Assembly (NCBI GenBank): GCA_054661495.1
Contig: BAAFSQ010000405.1
Coordinates: 1-7,628, forward strand
DNA: 7,628 nucleotides
DNA from: Zygophlyctis sp. KS116
Lineage: Eukaryota > Fungi > Chytridiomycota
Reading direction: 5' to 3'
The position numbers were made by a program, and so were the translations under genes. Under the pieces are notes generated by a model, which saw nothing but the letters and a program-made list of their open reading frames with translations, was not told the origin of the DNA and made no database searches. Below are positions 1-7,628 of the stretch, piece by piece. The first letter of the stretch is position 1. Every line of letters begins with the position of its first letter.

Positions 1-1713
1 CGGGATGGCATTTGAGTAGGTCGAGCCAAGTTTGTGAGAATCGGGACAGTTTTCCATTTGAGCCATGCACATAAACTAATATGATCAGACGGGAAATGTG
101 AAGATGGGAGTGAAGTTAAACTTGACAAATAGCTTGTCATTTCGAAATTATTTCCACATTCAATCGAGTCTGGTGATAAAATAAAGTCATCAGTAAAGTC
201 TAGACTGCCTTCAATCAGTGTACTAGAAGAAGATCCATTAAGATTATTAAGGGCTTTTGATGGTTGAAAAACATCACATAATACGTCTCTAACAGAAAGT
301 GTACCACTTGAATATAATATATGATCAATTACCCCTTGAAATTCAGGAGTTTTATTTGTGAATGGCAAGTCACGAGAATTATATGCAGAGGCAAGCTTTA
401 CACCTTGACGTTGATTAGCAAACATATTCATGTGTTTTCTCGCATCTTCAAGCCCTTGATGAGCAATATCAAAGAAAAAAGGAGATATACTTCTAGGAAT
501 TTCTAGCCCCGGTTCAACCGCTGTCTCTGTCGACATTTGCTGAAAAGACTGAACCTTTGGAGGAAATACTTTTCCTCTAATCAAATAATCAATAACCGGC
601 TCTCCGGGTTTAGAGTTGAAATCACCTGCAATCACTGTAGGTAAACATGAATCTTTGGACTCTAACCATTCCACCAAAATTGAAGCCTGCAAAAGTTTAA
701 TATCTGAATAATCTGGATCCCAATGTAAATGAGTAGTTGCAATCCGAACTTTCAAAGACTTTGCAAACCTATTTTGAAAAACACAGACTAGAGCTATATT
801 AGAAAACTGAGAAATTCTCTTTTTTAAATAGTCTGGCATATGAGAAGGAATCCTTTCATGATACGCAAAAGCCTGTACATTTAAGATGGAAAATCTAGAA
901 ATTTGATAAAAAATAGCACAACCATCTGCAGAATGATCTCTCTTCTTCTTTTGAAAATGCCCTTGATATCCCATTCTTTGCAGTTCAGATAAGAAATAAC
1001 CATTAAAATCCGATGCTTGCAACTCCTAATTCTTTAACCTCTTTAAAGTAATTACTTGTAGACAAATAAAATCTGGTGAATAGAAAATAATTTCATCTAG
1101 TATTTTCCTTCTTCTAATTTCCCAGTCTAAATGTATAGGATCCGTTAAATGAAATTTTTCCAAAGTCCCATAAAATGGAGCTAACAGATTATAAGACATT
1201 ACCATAAAATGCCTAGAATCTATTTGCCCTGTAGTCTTCTTCTTCCATTCTCTTCTTGGTAAAGTAATTGTCCCTATTTTCAATTCTAAAATTAGTACCT
1301 TGCATTCCATTATACAAACTTCTAGGAATCTTGATCACATTACACCCATCTTCTACATGTAGAGTATAAGGATCTTTAGAGTGATTAAATTCCAAAGGAT
1401 CAAAGGTTGACGATTGAATATTTTCCAATTTTAAATTTGCCAAAATTTCAGGAAAAGATCTAGATTCTGTGGGTGCTGAACCTACTCTCTGACTAGTACT
1501 ATCCTTCATTACAGAAATACAAGATGATCCACTCCTAACCAAAGTTTCAGAAATCTTCCGTTGTCCAGTGACCAAATTCGGAATTTTTACATTTGAAGCA
1601 AACCGTTCTCTTAAAAGTAGAAATTCCCTTGTATAAGAAATTTTATGAGACTCTTTAGACTTTTTGAGCGCATCAGAGAGTGCAGACTTTTGACTTGGAA
1701 TCGGCAGTTGCAT
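1..1713 (-). CDS. CCR4: CCR4/CNOT6-like EEP-family nuclease (deadenylase-like), LRR-less, 3' partial; exons 1713-1299, 1273-1056, 1025-<1
   Basis: The manually spliced translation shows the CCR4-type motif series: LPRREW, VMSYNLLA, DFICLQE (E supplied after intron 2), DGCAIFY, TTHLHWDPDYSDIKLLQ, IAGDFNS, FTNKTPEFQGVIDHILY and HFPSDHISL. Exon 3 is open from 1025 to the window edge with no stop, which is why the ORF track missed it. HWDP..D.KL.Q resembles CCR4/CNOT6 more than Angel or nocturnin. It may be a paralog rather than the CCR4 ortholog. Confidence 0.88.
1026..1055 (-). other. Spliceosomal intron, 30 nt (CCR4-like gene intron 2)
   Basis: GTAATTACTTTAAAGAGGTTAAAGAATTAG, phase 0. Removal joins ICLQ to ELQASDF, rebuilding the catalytic LQE motif. 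The terminal TAG is an in-frame stop if the intron is retained. Confidence 0.92.
1274..1298 (-). other. Spliceosomal intron, 25 nt (CCR4-like gene intron 1)
   Basis: GTACTAATTTTAGAATTGAAAATAG, phase 1. Removal joins ORF 1713..1213 (…YNGMQ) in frame to ORF 1310..1026 (GTITLPRREW…). Confidence 0.82.
1615..1644 (-). other. Canonical eIF4E-binding motif YxxxxLΦ (KISYTREFLL, aa 24-33) in the N-terminus of the CCR4-like protein
   Basis: Direct translation gives Y27-T-R-E-F-L32-L33, with a basic residue at -3 and R at +2. This pattern resembles 4E-BP (RIIYDRKFLL/M) and eIF4G (YDREFLL) motifs. It lies in an S/K-rich, probably disordered region. Confidence 0.6.
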
Positions 1714-1787: not shown

Positions 1788-4700
1788 ATGAGAGGTCGAA
1801 AGAAGGGATTCTTAAAGGCTCTAGAGTCTGGCAATGATATTTTTAGTAGAGATAATTTAATGCATTTAGATCCCACTAGTAGAAATTATACATTTCCATT
1901 TTGGGATTTTATACTGGGAAAAGATTTTAATCTTTATTTCCAACAGTACTGTAGGTCATTATCATGTATTTCAGTCTTTCAAGAGTCCGAAAGGTTGGAA
2001 AAGATGGAAAAGTTTTTGTTTTTTCTATTAGAAAATACAAAAGATTTGGAATGCATTCATGTGTTTTTAGACTCTTGTGGGAATTTAAGAGATTCTACAA
2101 GACTAGAATTACTGGAAAAATTATTGGAAATTTCAAGTTTGGATTTTAGGGTTTATAGTCGACTTATTGTATTGAATTTTGGGATTTTAGAAAAAGAATT
2201 ACTACAGGTTTTTCAAATTTTAGCATTTGTAAGTGTATTTTACTTTAATTTTAGGAATTTAAAAGTAATGATCTAGAGATTCCAAGAAATTCACGTGATT
2301 ATAGAATAGAATTAGGAATCAAGGTTGTGGATAATTTTGCAAATGCAAGAAAGTTGCATGAATTTTTATTAAAATATTTTGAAAATGATTCAACTTTTAG
2401 CGATATAATTACTAATCAAGAGGTTTTGGACGTGTATACTTTTATTGAAAATAATTTTAATAGTCTTGCACTTCATATATCAAAAGCTTCAAGCTCTATA
2501 AGTTGTCAGATTTTAAATGTTTGTGTTGGAATTTTAAATCAAATATGGGCAAGGAAAGAAAAAAGGAAAATTAGTCATATATCTACTATAATATTACTTA
2601 TAGTAAGGCATGCAAGGGTATCAACAGTTTCAAAAAAATCAGTCTTTGAATCTTGCATAGAATTTCATTCAAAGATTTTACTACCTTGTTTAGAGAAAAA
2701 GAAATTATCAAGTTTTGATGCTAATATTTTAGCAGTTTGGCATGGTTTTCTTGAAGCTTTTAATTTTTACTCTGAAGAATATCTTTCTTCAAAACTTGTT
2801 TTAGAGTTGATTTCACTAAACAAGAATGGGGATGGGCAAAACACTGTGGGAATCTGGCAAACTAAAATTGCGCTATTGTATCTGGATCATGTTGCAAGTA
2901 CTGTTCAAGATCCGTTTCAAGTAAAGGATTTATCCTTGATTATTTCAAGGTTGAGTCTGTTAAAGAATTTGAAACTTGTTGAAAATAAGGATCACATACT
3001 TTCAGTTCTGTGTCATTTGACTCTAATATGCAGACTTGGTTCTCCTGATCAAATAGAGGCGATTGTAAAATACATTCTAAAATTGATCAGAAGAAATGAT
3101 CCTATATCAGAGATATTACTTCGATCAGCAGTATTTTTTGAAATACCACAGATTCGTGATTGTTTTTTGGATCTTTGGTTTCATCAAATGAACAAGCAAC
3201 TCAAGAAACTTTCTTCTGGCATAGATTTCAAGAACCTTTTTAGTCAAGCTCAAAAAGACGATTTAAGCAATTTTACAAAAGAATCTAGCTTATTGTTTGA
3301 AAATAACATTGGTGATCCGGACTCTTTTTTTCAGAATGATTTACAATTAGATGGTCTCTTAGAAATGCTTACATGTTTAGAACGATTTCCAGCTCATTAT
3401 TTTTCAGATAGTGCAGAAAAGAAGATTGTTTCAGCTTTGATATTAATGGATAAAGTTGGTTCTATGATTCAAGATATGCCGAATCGTATTTCATGGTTAG
3501 GCCATACCAGAAGTCTTTTGGCATCTCACATCAAGAGGTGTCAACACCATTTGTTTTTTGTAAAACGTTTTTTAGCTAAAAAATAGTCTGGCTTCTCCTC
3601 ATATCTGGTCTATCTTTTAGAGACAGTCGATATGGTTGATTTTTCAGAAAACTTTAACCAGGAAGAGTCTGTCAGATGGGACACTATTACAATAGTACAG
3701 CTTATTATTGGGAAATTGTGCCCGCCAAAGTTTCAAAGTTCTTTATATAATTCAATACTTGATTATAGAAGCAAAAAGACCGCAAATACAGCTTACTGGG
3801 ACTATGCTCTATTTTCAACAATGTTTAAACTAATGTCGAAGAAAAGGTATCTATCAAAGATGAATGTTAAATAATAGTGGGAATGCGGATGCTTTAGCTT
3901 TGATTAACATTGATGAACTGTCAGTGAGAGTCCTTGACGAGACTTTTTCTGGGGGATTTGAAAGCAAGATTCAAATGATGGCAGTCGATGAAATTCTTAA
4001 AGTTCTGGAAAAGGCTGGTTTAAATGATACTATTAATCTCTGTTGTGAAAAACTCCAATCATATCATGGACTGTGCCCAGAAAAAAGTCCGTCGTGGTGT
4101 TATTCCTTTGAGCTCTTATGTAATTGGTTTAAATATATTCCTCAAAATATACATTTACAGATTTTAGAATCTGGCTGGGAAAACGTGGAGAGTCAATCAG
4201 TTAAAAGTGGAATAAATCGAATGATTGAGAACGCCAGTAACGATCAATCTATAGTTATCGCCGAAAATGTTATTTGCACAATTTCCAGAATTATTAAAGG
4301 ATTAAATAGTACTAAGAATGAAATAATTCCGGCTGAATCGGTAATTAGACCTTTAAAGATTTTTTTTGAAATGGATACGATGACAGGTAAATATCTTTTG
4401 ATTAGATTTACTATTTAGCTGGAGGAAAAATTATACTGAAGCAGTTGTCAGAATTTCTACATTCGTTTCTCATATTGTGTGCCCTCACACCAAATATCAA
4501 ATCCATTATCTCTATTTTAGACTTTTGCCATTGTTTGATTAGTAATAAGGTAAAATCTAGCTAAAATGATTTACTGATAGAATTTCACCCTTTCTTCCTT
4601 ACAAATTTGCAAAATTATGGAAATAATATCTGCTATAGGAGAATCTGATATTCGCTCTGATGTTCAAGAAGAAAAATCGGAATTGTTTGAACATATTTAT

Positions 4701-5274
4701 CTTGTCGCAAATGACATTGTAAGATACCAAAGAGAATCACTAGTAAACGTAATCCCTCACTTTATAAGTGTTCTTCAAGATCTTCTAAGGTAATATTTTA
4801 TATCAAATAACTTGAAGAGTTTTCCAGGAGAAGCCGGTATCTTACCCATATATGGCTAAGGAAGAAGCCCCGGCAAGATGTAGATTTGATATATTATGTC
4901 ACGGACGTTTACCATCACCTTCAAAGCTATCCTCTCTTTATTCCAATATTATTATGTCTATGACACAAAAACCAAGCAGGGAAGTATCCGATGAAACTTT
5001 GCTTACCTCTCAGACATCGCGTTATATCAAACCATTTTCAAAGCATGCACCATTTCTTATAATTGAATTTATCACCATTCAATCTTCCAAAAGAACATTC
5101 CAGCCTGATTGTAAAAAGAATCTCACAAACGGAATGTACTCACTACTTCATCTTTGCAGTAAGCACGGCCATGATTTTGTTTTGGCAACTCTAGATCCTC
5201 ACTCTGGTTCTCGTCCTTTATTTAAAAAGTTATTCTCTGAATGGGAAGCTGATCATAAATTTAATGGAGTTTAA
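1788..5274 (+). CDS. URB2: URB2/Npa2-like nucleolar pre-ribosomal-associated protein, ~1103 aa; exons 1788-2228, 2255-3559, 3587-3846, 3878-4386, 4419-4549, 4581-4789, 4818-5274
   Basis: Six short GT-AG introns join five track ORFs and two untracked exons into one frame of 3312 nt including the stop. The product is a large Leu-rich helical protein. Its C-terminus resembles the Urb2/Npa2 domain: LFEHIYLVANDIVRYQRESLVNVIPHFISVLQDLLRVF … KPFSKHAPFLIIEF … LTNGMYSLLHLCS … LD … RPLFKKLFSEWEADHKFNGV*. The start is the first in-frame ATG after TGA 1722-1724. Confidence 0.82.
2229..2254 (+). other. Spliceosomal intron, 26 nt (URB2 intron 1)
   Basis: GTAAGTGTATTTTACTTTAATTTTAG, phase 0. Removal joins …QILAF to EFKSNDLEI…, in frame with ORF 2327..3586. 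Confidence 0.88.
3560..3586 (+). other. Spliceosomal intron, 27 nt (URB2 intron 2)
   Basis: GTAAAACGTTTTTTAGCTAAAAAATAG, phase 0, with a GCTAA branch-like site. The terminal TAG is an in-frame stop if retained. The frame continues SGFSSYL… into ORF 3632..3874. Confidence 0.85.
3847..3877 (+). other. Spliceosomal intron, 31 nt (URB2 intron 3)
   Basis: GTATCTATCAAAGATGAATGTTAAATAATAG, phase 2 (AG|T = Ser). Removal joins ORF 3632 to the frame of ORF 3864 (SGNADAL…). Confidence 0.85.
4387..4418 (+). other. Spliceosomal intron, 32 nt (URB2 intron 4)
   Basis: GTAAATATCTTTTGATTAGATTTACTATTTAG, phase 1 (G|CT = Ala). Removal opens the exon AGGKIILKQLSEFLHSFL…CLISNK. Confidence 0.85.
4550..4580 (+). 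other. Spliceosomal intron, 31 nt (URB2 intron 5)
   Basis: GTAAAATCTAGCTAAAATGATTTACTGATAG, phase 0. The next exon NFTLSSLQICKIMEII…LQDLL is open and Urb2-like. Confidence 0.87.
4790..4817 (+). other. Spliceosomal intron, 28 nt (URB2 intron 6)
   Basis: GTAATATTTTATATCAAATAACTTGAAG, phase 2 (AG|A = Arg). Removal gives LLRVFQEKPVSYPYMAKEE…, in frame with ORF 4852..5274. The nearby AGs at 4819, 4827 and 4830 are out of frame. Confidence 0.82.
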
Positions 5275-5347: not shown

Positions 5348-7009
5348 TTATTCATCTATTGCAAGAGCATTAAAGTAATTCCCCATGTTTGCGGCTACAT
5401 CAGCCATAGTCCATGAACTTCGATGTGGCAATTGGCTTCCTTCTTCAGTATAGCTTCCATCTGTCCAGCTTTCTAGAAGCTTACTGGCAATTCTTTCAGC
5501 ACCAACACGTCCACCTAGTAAGTTGGCCGCAGTAGGACCAAGAGTTAAAGATGCATAACCTCCCATTACATAAAATTCCAAGTCTTTATGTATTCTTAGA
5601 TTATCATCCAAAATAGGTAGACCATTAACAGAGCGTAAGTTATAACTTTCTGCAATGTCTTTGAACACAGGCTCTTGAAAAATGTCATAAACACTCCCAG
5701 TAGCCAACCAAATTTGATCACATTGATATTTCAAACCAGAATTATCACTCATTTTGTATTCCCAAATCCCTTCTTCAATATCTTTAGAGGAAGATATCCA
5801 TTCACAATTACTGATACCAGAGTTTTGACAAATTTGAAGAATTCCTGAATTCACATAATTTTCAAGTATTTTGGCATACTCAGGAGTAATACTCCCTCCA
5901 TTTCTTTCCTTTTGAATCATATGAAGCCGAGACTTGTGATTCCTTTCCATCCAAAATTTTGCTAACCATCTTCCAGAATTTCTACCCATCAGATCCAGTG
6001 AAAAATCAAATTGCCGCACCTTCAAAGAAGATCTCATAATCAACTTGACATTTGTAAATCCACGTTTAACAGCCTTATGAACCATTTGAGCAGCTGTAAG
6101 ACCTCCTCCAACAACTACAAGACTCGCATTTTGGTGACTAGACAATTTCCCTTGAAGAGACTTTGGAATAATTTCTAAATGACCATGAGACAAATGATCA
6201 ATTTCATCTAAAGAAAGACAATCAATAAAATCACTAGCATGAGATATACGAGAGAACGGGAAAGGATTTTTAATTTCCTTTACAAAATCTGGAATCTTTT
6301 TCATATTTGTGTTTCCAATTGCACAAACAAGAGCATCTGTATAGATTATAGTATCCTTTAAACATCCAGCCTCTCCACAAGAGTAAGTAATCTCAAATCC
6401 CTTTTCCTTTTTTTCAACTTTAGTACATATTCCTTGAACTACCATATCATACAAATTATATCTATGAATCAAATCTGTACAAAAATCTGAAAATAATTCC
6501 GTGCCAGGAGTATAAAATTGTTCCCTGTCAGCATGATTTAAATTCTTAAAACCTGTACATTTCTTCTTCTTTGAGCCCCCATGATGATTTTTACAATTAT
6601 CAACCAGATGAGTTATATCATGCAACTCATTAGCTCTACCTCTTGAATGAGCAAATGCTCTTAAAGCTTCCGGAGAGCCTGGATCCATATGAAAAAACAA
6701 TGGCGAGCGAAGATATTCAATATCATAAGCTTTAAAACTCTTATCCCATTTTGCCATCCATTCACCGTATTTATCAATCACCAGAATACGTCTATTAAGA
6801 TCATTCAGAAGCAAAGGCGCAATATTGTCCAATCCATTAGACTTGTGAGACTTTCCTGAATGCAAATGATGTAATCGATCATGTTCAGTATCTGATATTA
6901 CAGAGCTTGGCCATCGTTCCAACAAACGAGTCACCAGGGCCAGAGCGTTAGGACCGGCTCCAATTACAACTAGATCATAGTGAGTGCATTCAAAACAGTC
7001 TTGAGTCAT
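5348..7009 (-). CDS. FAD/NAD(P)H-dependent flavoprotein, 553 aa (class B monooxygenase / lysine-ornithine N-hydroxylase-related, LRSP-motif subfamily); substrate unknown
   Basis: This is an uninterrupted ORF. The first ATG is at 7009 (MTQDCF…), whereas the track start at 7039 is a GTG. Motifs: FAD Rossmann YDLVVIGAGPNAL, W..F..YDIEYLRSPLFFHMDP, a second Rossmann VVVGGGLTAAQ followed by LIMRS (Arg suggests NADPH), WLATG, GLPILDDNLR and YVMGGYASLTLGPTAANLLGGRVGAERI. Confidence 0.85.
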   Translation of the reverse strand: MTQDCFECTHYDLVVIGAGPNALALVTRLLERWPSSVISDTEHDRLHHLHSGKSHKSNGLDNIAPLLLNDLNRRILVIDKYGEWMAKWDKSFKAYDIEYLRSPLFFHMDPGSPEALRAFAHSRGRANELHDITHLVDNCKNHHGGSKKKKCTGFKNLNHADREQFYTPGTELFSDFCTDLIHRYNLYDMVVQGICTKVEKKEKGFEITYSCGEAGCLKDTIIYTDALVCAIGNTNMKKIPDFVKEIKNPFPFSRISHASDFIDCLSLDEIDHLSHGHLEIIPKSLQGKLSSHQNASLVVVGGGLTAAQMVHKAVKRGFTNVKLIMRSSLKVRQFDFSLDLMGRNSGRWLAKFWMERNHKSRLHMIQKERNGGSITPEYAKILENYVNSGILQICQNSGISNCEWISSSKDIEEGIWEYKMSDNSGLKYQCDQIWLATGSVYDIFQEPVFKDIAESYNLRSVNGLPILDDNLRIHKDLEFYVMGGYASLTLGPTAANLLGGRVGAERIASKLLESWTDGSYTEEGSQLPHRSSWTMADVAANMGNYFNALAIDE

Positions 7010-7032
7010 TTGTGTTGATCGTTTCACCCACA

Positions 7033-7123
7033 AAATCACTTACCCACGCAATTTTGATCCGCAGTGTAACAGATCAGCATCGCAAATCATAATCTATAAA
7101 TCACTTTAATCTCAAATCACTTT
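7033..7123. repeat. Three AAATCACTT copies (7033-7041, 7098-7106, 7114-7122) plus AAATCAT (7084-7090) upstream of the flavoprotein gene; candidate cis-element
   Basis: An exact 9-mer occurs three times in the 150-bp intergenic region, and 7084-7123 forms a degenerate tandem array. The function is inferred only. Confidence 0.5.
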
Positions 7124-7159: not shown

Positions 7160-7628
7160 TTATTTCTTTTTTGCATACAGAATAAAGTAATGATTACAAA
7201 ACATGATCCATTCTTCTACTTCATCTAATCTCTCTATCCTATTCCATTTTTCCACCATTTCTTTTGGAACCAGATCTTCTAAAGCTTTATTCATATCCCA
7301 TGCTAAAACTTCAAATCCTAGAGTCTTGTATCGCTCTATTTGTGAGTCTAGAGTAGGAAATTCTGCTATTCCATAAAGTTTAATTCCTCTTTCACTTAAA
7401 TTCTGAATCATCATTTTCCCAAAAGAATCGTTTGGTAGTATCTAACTGTAAGTTTTTAAAATCATGTACTTGTTCATAGACTATAAATGCACAATCTTGA
7501 ATTAAATTTCTAAATTCTTGAATCAAACACGTACTTTTCTCCACTTCCAAGTAGATTAAAAGGCATTCAGAGAGTATTAGAGTAGGAATTAGAGTATTAA
7601 ATCCAAAATTTAACAATTTTCCTTTAAT
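7160..7628 (-). CDS. PPM1: Leucine carboxyl methyltransferase 1 (PP2A C-terminal methyltransferase), 5' partial; exons >7628-7470, 7441-7160
   Basis: The spliced translation reads …PTLILSECLLIYL…FIVYEQ|ILPNDSFGKMMIQNLSERGIKLYGI…PTLDSQIERY…GF…AWDM…IERLDEVEEWIMFCNHYFILYAKKK*. These are hallmark LCMT1/PPM1 motifs. There is no C-terminal kelch extension, so this is not PPM2/TYW4. Confidence 0.92.
7442..7469 (-). other. Spliceosomal intron, 28 nt (PPM1/LCMT1)
   Basis: GTACATGATTTTAAAAACTTACAGTTAG, phase 0. Removal restores the conserved YEQI.P.D.FG motif. Confidence 0.93.

Follow-up and report, generated by a model that had tools for sequence, protein, structure and literature searches.

The minus-strand gene at the start of the window (the whole 7,628-nucleotide stretch of Zygophlyctis sp. 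KS116 DNA analyzed here) encodes a CCR4-like EEP nuclease without a leucine-rich repeat (LRR), which belongs to a subfamily of chytrid and Mortierellales proteins and carries a candidate eIF4E-binding motif in its N-terminal region. If both activities suggested by these features are real, a single chain would combine cap-complex binding with poly(A) removal. An earlier note on this DNA had proposed such a protein; our results sustain much of that proposal at the level of this gene, and revise it at the level of the subfamily.

Gene structure and nuclease domain

The gene begins with an ATG at 1713, and removal of two GT-AG introns leaves a single minus-strand frame of 552 aa, open at the window edge. 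Exon 1 (1299..1713, aa 1-138) encodes a low-complexity region with short conserved blocks and no LRR, exon 2 (1056..1273) the start of the EEP domain (SYN, CLQ), and exon 3 (1..1025) the remainder of the nuclease, matched by Pfam PF03372 (E 9.1e-11) and running to the window edge. Both splice junctions align without gaps to the annotated chytrid proteins P0084 and P0090. Intron 1 (1274..1298, 25 nt) is missing from the ortholog P0142, whose N-terminus continues directly into the first 70 nuclease residues in one frame, while intron 2 (1026..1055, 30 nt) falls between LQ and E212, the same point at which homology to P0142 stops. Because P0142 reads through, the motif and the nuclease belong to a single reading frame, by homology rather than by RNA. 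This upholds the splice model of the earlier note, which had joined exon 1 to the nuclease across an intron at 1298-1274, and removes, again through homology and not RNA, the concern that exon 1 might not be spliced to the nuclease exons. The 25-nt length of intron 1 is not unusual for this genome, since candidate introns in the neighboring Urb2-like gene measure 27-32 nt. Two other gene models were rejected: that exon 1 is a separate gene, ruled out by the P0142 read-through, and that an LRR exon lies upstream, ruled out because none of the three minus-strand frames of 2300-1714 matches the LRR consensus. The 3' end of the gene is cut by the window, as its closest relatives (P0001, P0002, P0005 and P0006) extend beyond that point.

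The window also contains a multi-exon Urb2/Npa2-like gene (2255-5274, plus strand; Pfam PF10441, E 3.5e-22), divergent from the nuclease gene with about 540 nt between them; a frame of 563 aa that resembles FAD/NAD(P) oxidoreductases (5348-7039, minus strand; PF13434, E 5e-6); and fragments of a gene resembling leucine carboxyl methyltransferases (7160-7628, minus strand; PF04072, E 0.0014).

Six CCR4 motifs are present in the spliced protein (SYN 165, LQE 210, HWDP 312, GDFN 345, IDH 444 and PSDH 523), so that the intact CCR4/CNOT6-type catalytic set claimed earlier is found where it was said to be. Each of the ten EEP residues that PMC8216464 lists for human CCR4a has a counterpart (N167, E212, H310, D346, N348, T434, D445, S524, D525 and H526), as have the HWDP loop and N481. 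On the minus strand, the segment THLHWDP (714..734) supplies H310 and, by sequence, the CCR4 active-site loop named in PMC8216464; comparison with solved structures, together with sequence, assigns D346 and N348 to GDFN (615..626), T434, N435, F440 and D445 to the stretch from PFTNKT to FQGVIDH (321..365), and S524, D525 and H526 to PSDH (81..92). The best solved relatives of exon 3 were yeast Ccr4 and CNOT6L (E 6e-20 to 1e-18), whereas the Angel2, PDE12 and nocturnin structures matched with E values of 2e-13 or worse; the ortholog P0084 scored 121 bits against Ccr4/CNOT6L versus 84 bits against the Angel2/PDE12/nocturnin group. From these residues and similarities, we think it likely that the nuclease has deadenylase activity. 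Intact EEP residues are no proof of it, because Angel proteins keep them yet show no deadenylation, the activity of Angel1 being that of a phosphatase (10.1101/2022.04.28.489582).

An LRR-less subfamily in chytrids and Mortierellales

A search with exon 3 recovered 79 relatives of near length and 60 longer ones. Nearest were metagenome fragments with 58-75% identity, followed by proteins of named chytrids (Rhizoclosmatium, Polychytrium, Chytriomyces, Cladochytrium, Nowakowskiella and others) and then of Mortierellales, all of them LRR-less; LRR-bearing CCR4s ranked after these. In a nuclease tree of 45 rows, hand-chosen from 75 aligned of the 139 matches, the chytrid and Mortierellales proteins formed one clade with support of 100/99 and a long stem branch. 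The nuclease is therefore a member of an LRR-less chytrid and Mortierellales subfamily, and the clade is strongly supported. This subfamily lay outside both the clade of Angel rows (100/99) and that of Ngl-like rows (100/100), and nocturnin rows also stood apart. The Angel and nocturnin labels came partly from source names; those of the Ngl-like and PDE12-like rows were assigned by us from sequence signatures. The protein shares HWDP, PFTNxT and FxGxID with the LRR-bearing CCR4 rows and not with the Angel, Ngl-like, PDE12-like or nocturnin rows. Membership of the Angel or Ngl clades was therefore ruled out, both by the separate clades and by the differing active-site signatures.

In sequence the subfamily is most similar to Ccr4/CNOT6, and the tree weakly suggests nesting among the CCR4s: the best topology placed it among LRR-CCR4s at 64/87, and the AU test rejected neither a sister relation to Angel (p 0.23), nor one to the Ngl-like rows (p 0.19), nor a position outside a monophyletic LRR-CCR4 group (p 0.35). 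The EEP phylogeny called for earlier thus separates the protein from the Angel and Ngl clades but does not reject either as its sister, and the firm placement in CCR4 proper that the earlier note assumed has to be given up.

This bears on an explanation in which the protein binds eIF4E and is not a deadenylase. Like Angel1/2, it would then act on a different kind of 3' end, a 2',3'-cyclic phosphate for instance, or take part in quality control, and eIF4E would serve to localize it and not as the point of repression. The AU values and the long stem branch leave space for it, and Angel1, itself a phosphatase, binds eIF4E without a change in global translation (PMC3763552). We nevertheless judge it unlikely, given the active-site signatures shared with LRR-CCR4s, the Ccr4/CNOT6L structures as best solved matches, and the nesting among CCR4s in the best tree, weak as that is.

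No LRR was detected in the window protein, either as a Pfam domain or as a consensus match; a Pfam scan of exon 1 matched no family, and none of the 28 clade sequences scanned contained an LRR. Serine makes up 15% and lysine 7.9% of aa 1-140. The N-terminus had been described as about 145 aa, S/K-rich and LRR-free, which is right as to composition and the LRR, but only about aa 1-116 are linker-like, as aa 121-131 belong to a conserved, predicted beta-hairpin that precedes the nuclease. This pre-nuclease segment, EDGC-x-VIKIPR (1321..1353, minus strand; predicted strands 117-121 and 124-128), is invariant at 9/11 positions, aligns to P0080, P0084 and P0090, and is common to the chytrid clade.

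Our literature search, which covered titles and the beginnings of abstracts and few subscription papers, returned no description of an LRR-less chytrid/Mortierellales subfamily, to which the present results point; in the same scope, no CCR4-like nuclease was described as having an eIF4E motif in its N-terminus. A structure-atlas search with P0084 returned only generic EEP, CNOT6L and Angel2 clusters, and one with the P0142 N-terminus gave no usable match. Two members, P0100 (Chytridiales sp.) and P0101 (Nowakowskiella sp.), are second paralogs with altered HWDP and PSDH, and are likely pseudo-nucleases. LSQSVP-like repeats recur in disordered regions, namely the C-terminal tails of P0001, P0002, P0003, P0005 and P0006 and the N-termini of P0084, P0085 and P0087; at a guess, they are possibly kinase sites.

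The N-terminal motif and its predicted complex with eIF4E

The candidate canonical eIF4E-binding motif lies at 1600..1644 on the minus strand. The spliced translation confirms KISYTREFLL at aa 24-33 (nt 1644-1615), the position given in the earlier note, with the core YTREFLL at aa 27-33 (nt 1635-1615) one substitution from the YDREFLL of human eIF4G1 (PMC12102759). The extended consensus has R/K at +2 and +9 (PMC6061780); the window protein and its two close orthologs have R at +2 and E at +9, and Chaetomium eIF4G has R/K at neither position (PMC6061780). The motif match alone is not significant, because 5.6% of 20,000 shuffles of the N-terminus contained a strict match (2.0% for the form with a basic residue at -3), in line with published experience that the consensus matches too often by chance (PMC3763552); the support comes from conservation.

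Searches with exon 1 identified two other orthologous N-termini: P0141, with 2 matches among 19 candidates, the second a 99% copy, and P0142, with 3 matches in 1.84 billion. P0141 is tied to the nuclease fragment P0002 by shared source and not by DNA. Both close orthologs have the motif in place (2/2), as YSREFIL in P0141, with I at the motif's invariant L position, and YSREFLL in P0142, and these two with the window are the only sequences, close and related, that do. Five of the seven core positions are invariant in the three (Y0, R+2, E+3, F+4 and L+6). In the three-way alignment, 8/12 positions of aa 27-38 were invariant versus 6/70 in the linkers (Fisher p 3e-5, for blocks picked post hoc). 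Eleven residues after the core is an invariant IP (aa 44-45), part of a candidate non-canonical motif at 1567..1584 on the minus strand, in the downstream place that the non-canonical motif IPGVTS/T occupies in human 4E-BPs (PMC4164784). Two further minus-strand blocks are conserved in the three orthologs: KSALSDALK (aa 9-17, 1663..1689), invariant at 8/9 positions, and SFPE-x4-LKL (aa 86-96, 1426..1458), invariant at 7/11. A fold prediction from the shallow three-sequence alignment gave no folded domain (pTM 0.17, mean pLDDT 55), with predicted helices at aa 11-22, over KSALSDALK, and at aa 29-38; YxxxxL-phi at aa 27-33 falls in the predicted disordered region.

Conservation alone cannot single out eIF4E as the partner, because two other blocks (8/9 and 7/11) are conserved to the same degree as the motif (8/12). 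The blocks could dock other partners, such as CAF1, CAF40/NOT1, decapping factors or the nuclease itself, with the likeness to an eIF4E motif incidental, an explanation consistent with the shuffle frequencies, with the better conservation of KSALSDALK and with the I at an invariant L in P0141. Six short peptide stretches matched no Pfam eIF4E-binding family, and neither aa 8-47 nor the N-terminal alignment retrieved a relevant solved chain or any solved 4E-BP peptide. These results fit the same explanation, although short motifs often fall below profile thresholds. We hold it to be quite unlikely, since the five invariant core residues are those of eIF4G1, the invariant IP sits where a non-canonical motif would be expected, and predicted docking reproduces the canonical motif register.

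Docking used an eIF4E from a viral contig, L009, as a stand-in for the host protein. Its best solved relative was 6fbz (151 bits), which, from residue numbers matching PMC6061780, we take to be the Chaetomium protein. Residues 8-55 with this stand-in scored 0.77 versus 0.02 for the best control, with the wild-type motif only and no alignments used; at least 77% of contacts were common to the runs, and partner pLDDT was 60 or more. The score mark was reached by 51/78 solved versus 2/108 mismatched microbial pairs and, among eukaryotic pairs, by 39/65 without an older like complex (71/105 in all) versus 2/126 unrelated pairs; these calibration pairs excluded peptides and disordered chains. In the predicted complex, Y27, L32 and L33 touch the equivalents of V81 and L146, and aa 35-40 contact W85. 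The predicted interface spans HPL, V81, W85 and L146 and the lateral F57, V75, I76 and I91 (Chaetomium eIF4E numbering, via alignment), and includes I44, P45 and L47 at the lateral pocket. The modeling with eIF4E that had been proposed earlier thus places the peptide on both the canonical and the lateral faces. Because like complexes have already been solved, the pass is a measure of likeness to known eIF4E ligands rather than of binding, and the model may recall those complexes. Taking conservation and predicted docking together, we consider it probable, and slightly more so than the deadenylase activity, that the protein binds eIF4E.

The viral contigs L009 (646-1239, plus strand) and L019 (325-957, minus strand) encode eIF4E proteins in which the dorsal-face residues are intact and the N-terminus is fungal-like. 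Eukaryotic-type eIF4E sequences on L024, L027 and L028, short contigs of bacterial assemblies, are likely contamination.

Proposed mechanism and variation across the subfamily

In the mechanism that we propose, binding to eIF4E would be in two parts, Y27, L32 and L33 on the dorsal face and I44, P45 and L47 reaching the lateral pocket, and would hold the protein at the capped mRNP. The nuclease would trim poly(A) there without LRR-CAF1 docking, while the eIF4G site on eIF4E was occupied. By analogy with 4E-T, the product would be a silenced, deadenylated and still-capped message. The full stand-alone mechanism, an eIF4E-tethered deadenylase acting without LRR-CAF1 docking, has by our estimate a little under an even chance of being correct. 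Angel1 binds eIF4E yet failed to displace eIF4G in cells (PMC3763552).

A protein that has lost the LRR does not necessarily part from CAF1, because LRR-less homologs such as Angel2 and plant proteins may pair with CAF1-family proteins (PMC3870282). The protein might bind eIF4E and deadenylate as a component of CCR4-NOT, held there by a contact other than the LRR, and so be a built-in bridge of the 4E-T kind. Two conserved blocks and the hairpin ahead of the nuclease would be free to make such a contact, but this is very doubtful given that stable attachment of Ccr4 in yeast and vertebrates is described as requiring the LRR (PMC3870282).

The proposed stand-alone enzyme resembles several known systems in part. 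It shares with Ccr4, CNOT6 and CNOT6L the EEP catalytic set, the HWDP loop and the C-terminal PSDH, and differs in the missing LRR, the short-motif N-terminus, two nuclease insertions and a clade of its own. Vertebrate Angel1 is likewise an LRR-less CCR4-family EEP protein, and its YxxxxL-phi motif has been shown to bind eIF4E, but that motif is vertebrate-specific and sits in the C-terminal domain at Tyr506 rather than at the N-terminus (PMC3763552), which favors the convergent origin suggested earlier. If the motif functions as predicted, this would be a second, independent gain of an eIF4E motif in the CCR4 family. In 4E-BP1-3, eIF4G and yeast p20/Eap1 (PMC4164784, PMC6061780), too, a canonical motif lies near the N-terminus and, after a short linker, comes a non-canonical element that is hydrophobic. 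None of them has a nuclease, and the +9 residue is E in the window protein rather than R/K. Yeast Ngl1-3 and plant CCR4 homologs are LRR-less, and Ngl3 has been proposed to deadenylate independently of Ccr4-Not, but they fall in separate clades and the available text of PMC3870282 mentions no eIF4E motif in them. In 4E-T (and CUP), binding to eIF4E is linked with deadenylation and storage (PMC7263148); 4E-T itself lacks a nuclease and brings in CCR4-NOT, whereas the window protein has motif and nuclease in one chain. The window protein, if the mechanism holds, would provide a minimal system of two proteins for testing if tail removal is accelerated when the cap is held. To our knowledge, the cap is connected to the deadenylase in the systems studied by adaptors, 4E-T among them, through which CCR4-NOT is recruited.

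Conservation of the motif among orthologs, a check suggested by the earlier note, gave a divided answer: it is in place in 2/2 close orthologs, but the strict form is missing from 18/19 more distant chytrid-clade N-termini. Over the whole chytrid clade (26 rows, or 22 after removal of 4 without a usable N-terminus), strict matches numbered 3/22 versus 2.7 expected, found in the window protein and P0142 and, within an unrelated context, in P0093; in Mortierellales, where 26 of 30 rows were counted, they numbered 1/26 versus 2.1 expected. A clade-wide exchange of the LRR for an eIF4E motif was therefore ruled out, with the strict motif at or below chance in the subfamily. The swap proposed earlier does not survive, because the whole subfamily is LRR-less while the strict motif occurs in just 1/19 distant chytrid and 1/26 Mortierellales N-termini. 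Judged from these sequences, LRR loss is old and common to the whole subfamily, and the eIF4E motif is lineage-restricted, either confined to one subclade or repeatedly lost.

Other short motifs vary in the same region. The Polychytrium protein P0080 (aa 188-335) has a relaxed motif, YSMEFMM, followed by IPGIT, plus a TOS-like FDLDI; the elements together resemble a 4E-BP fused to a nuclease, which we treat as a lead, a relaxed match being expected in 40% of P0080 shuffles. PAM2-like matches occurred in 6/22 clade N-termini versus 0.01 expected, and loose TOS-like matches in 8/22 versus 0.21 expected (3/22 with a strict pattern), all with patterns tuned after inspection of the sequences. The TOS-like matches are likewise leads, and a TOS consensus match in LARP1 was not functional (10.1101/491274). 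A metagenome scan reduced 141 pattern matches to 3 loci, one of them in the clade (L001) and without an eIF4E motif; Pfam PAM2 on L001 was below threshold (E 0.054, 13.7 bits versus a cut-off of 20). The disordered region appears to be a lineage-variable recruiter across the subfamily, with an eIF4E motif here and PAM2-like matches in several relatives.

A broader proposal, which we put forward tentatively and regard as somewhat unlikely, is that early-diverging fungi keep a CCR4-like subfamily in which the LRR has been replaced by a disordered region that takes up lineage-specific closed-loop handles (PAM2-like and TOS-like elements in some lineages, an eIF4E motif in this one and perhaps also in Polychytrium). 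The window protein would then be a one-chain 4E-BP and deadenylase that silences and stores mRNA outside CCR4-NOT, for example in zoospores, when these are translationally quiet.

Two further conserved blocks were observed in the subfamily. MVDWV[VL]G is conserved in 12/22 clade N-termini (among P0083-P0098), with none expected from shuffles. In the Mortierellales proteins P0014 and P0103-P0123, a DSGYES block, which resembles a beta-TrCP degron, is invariant in 13/13 aligned N-termini.
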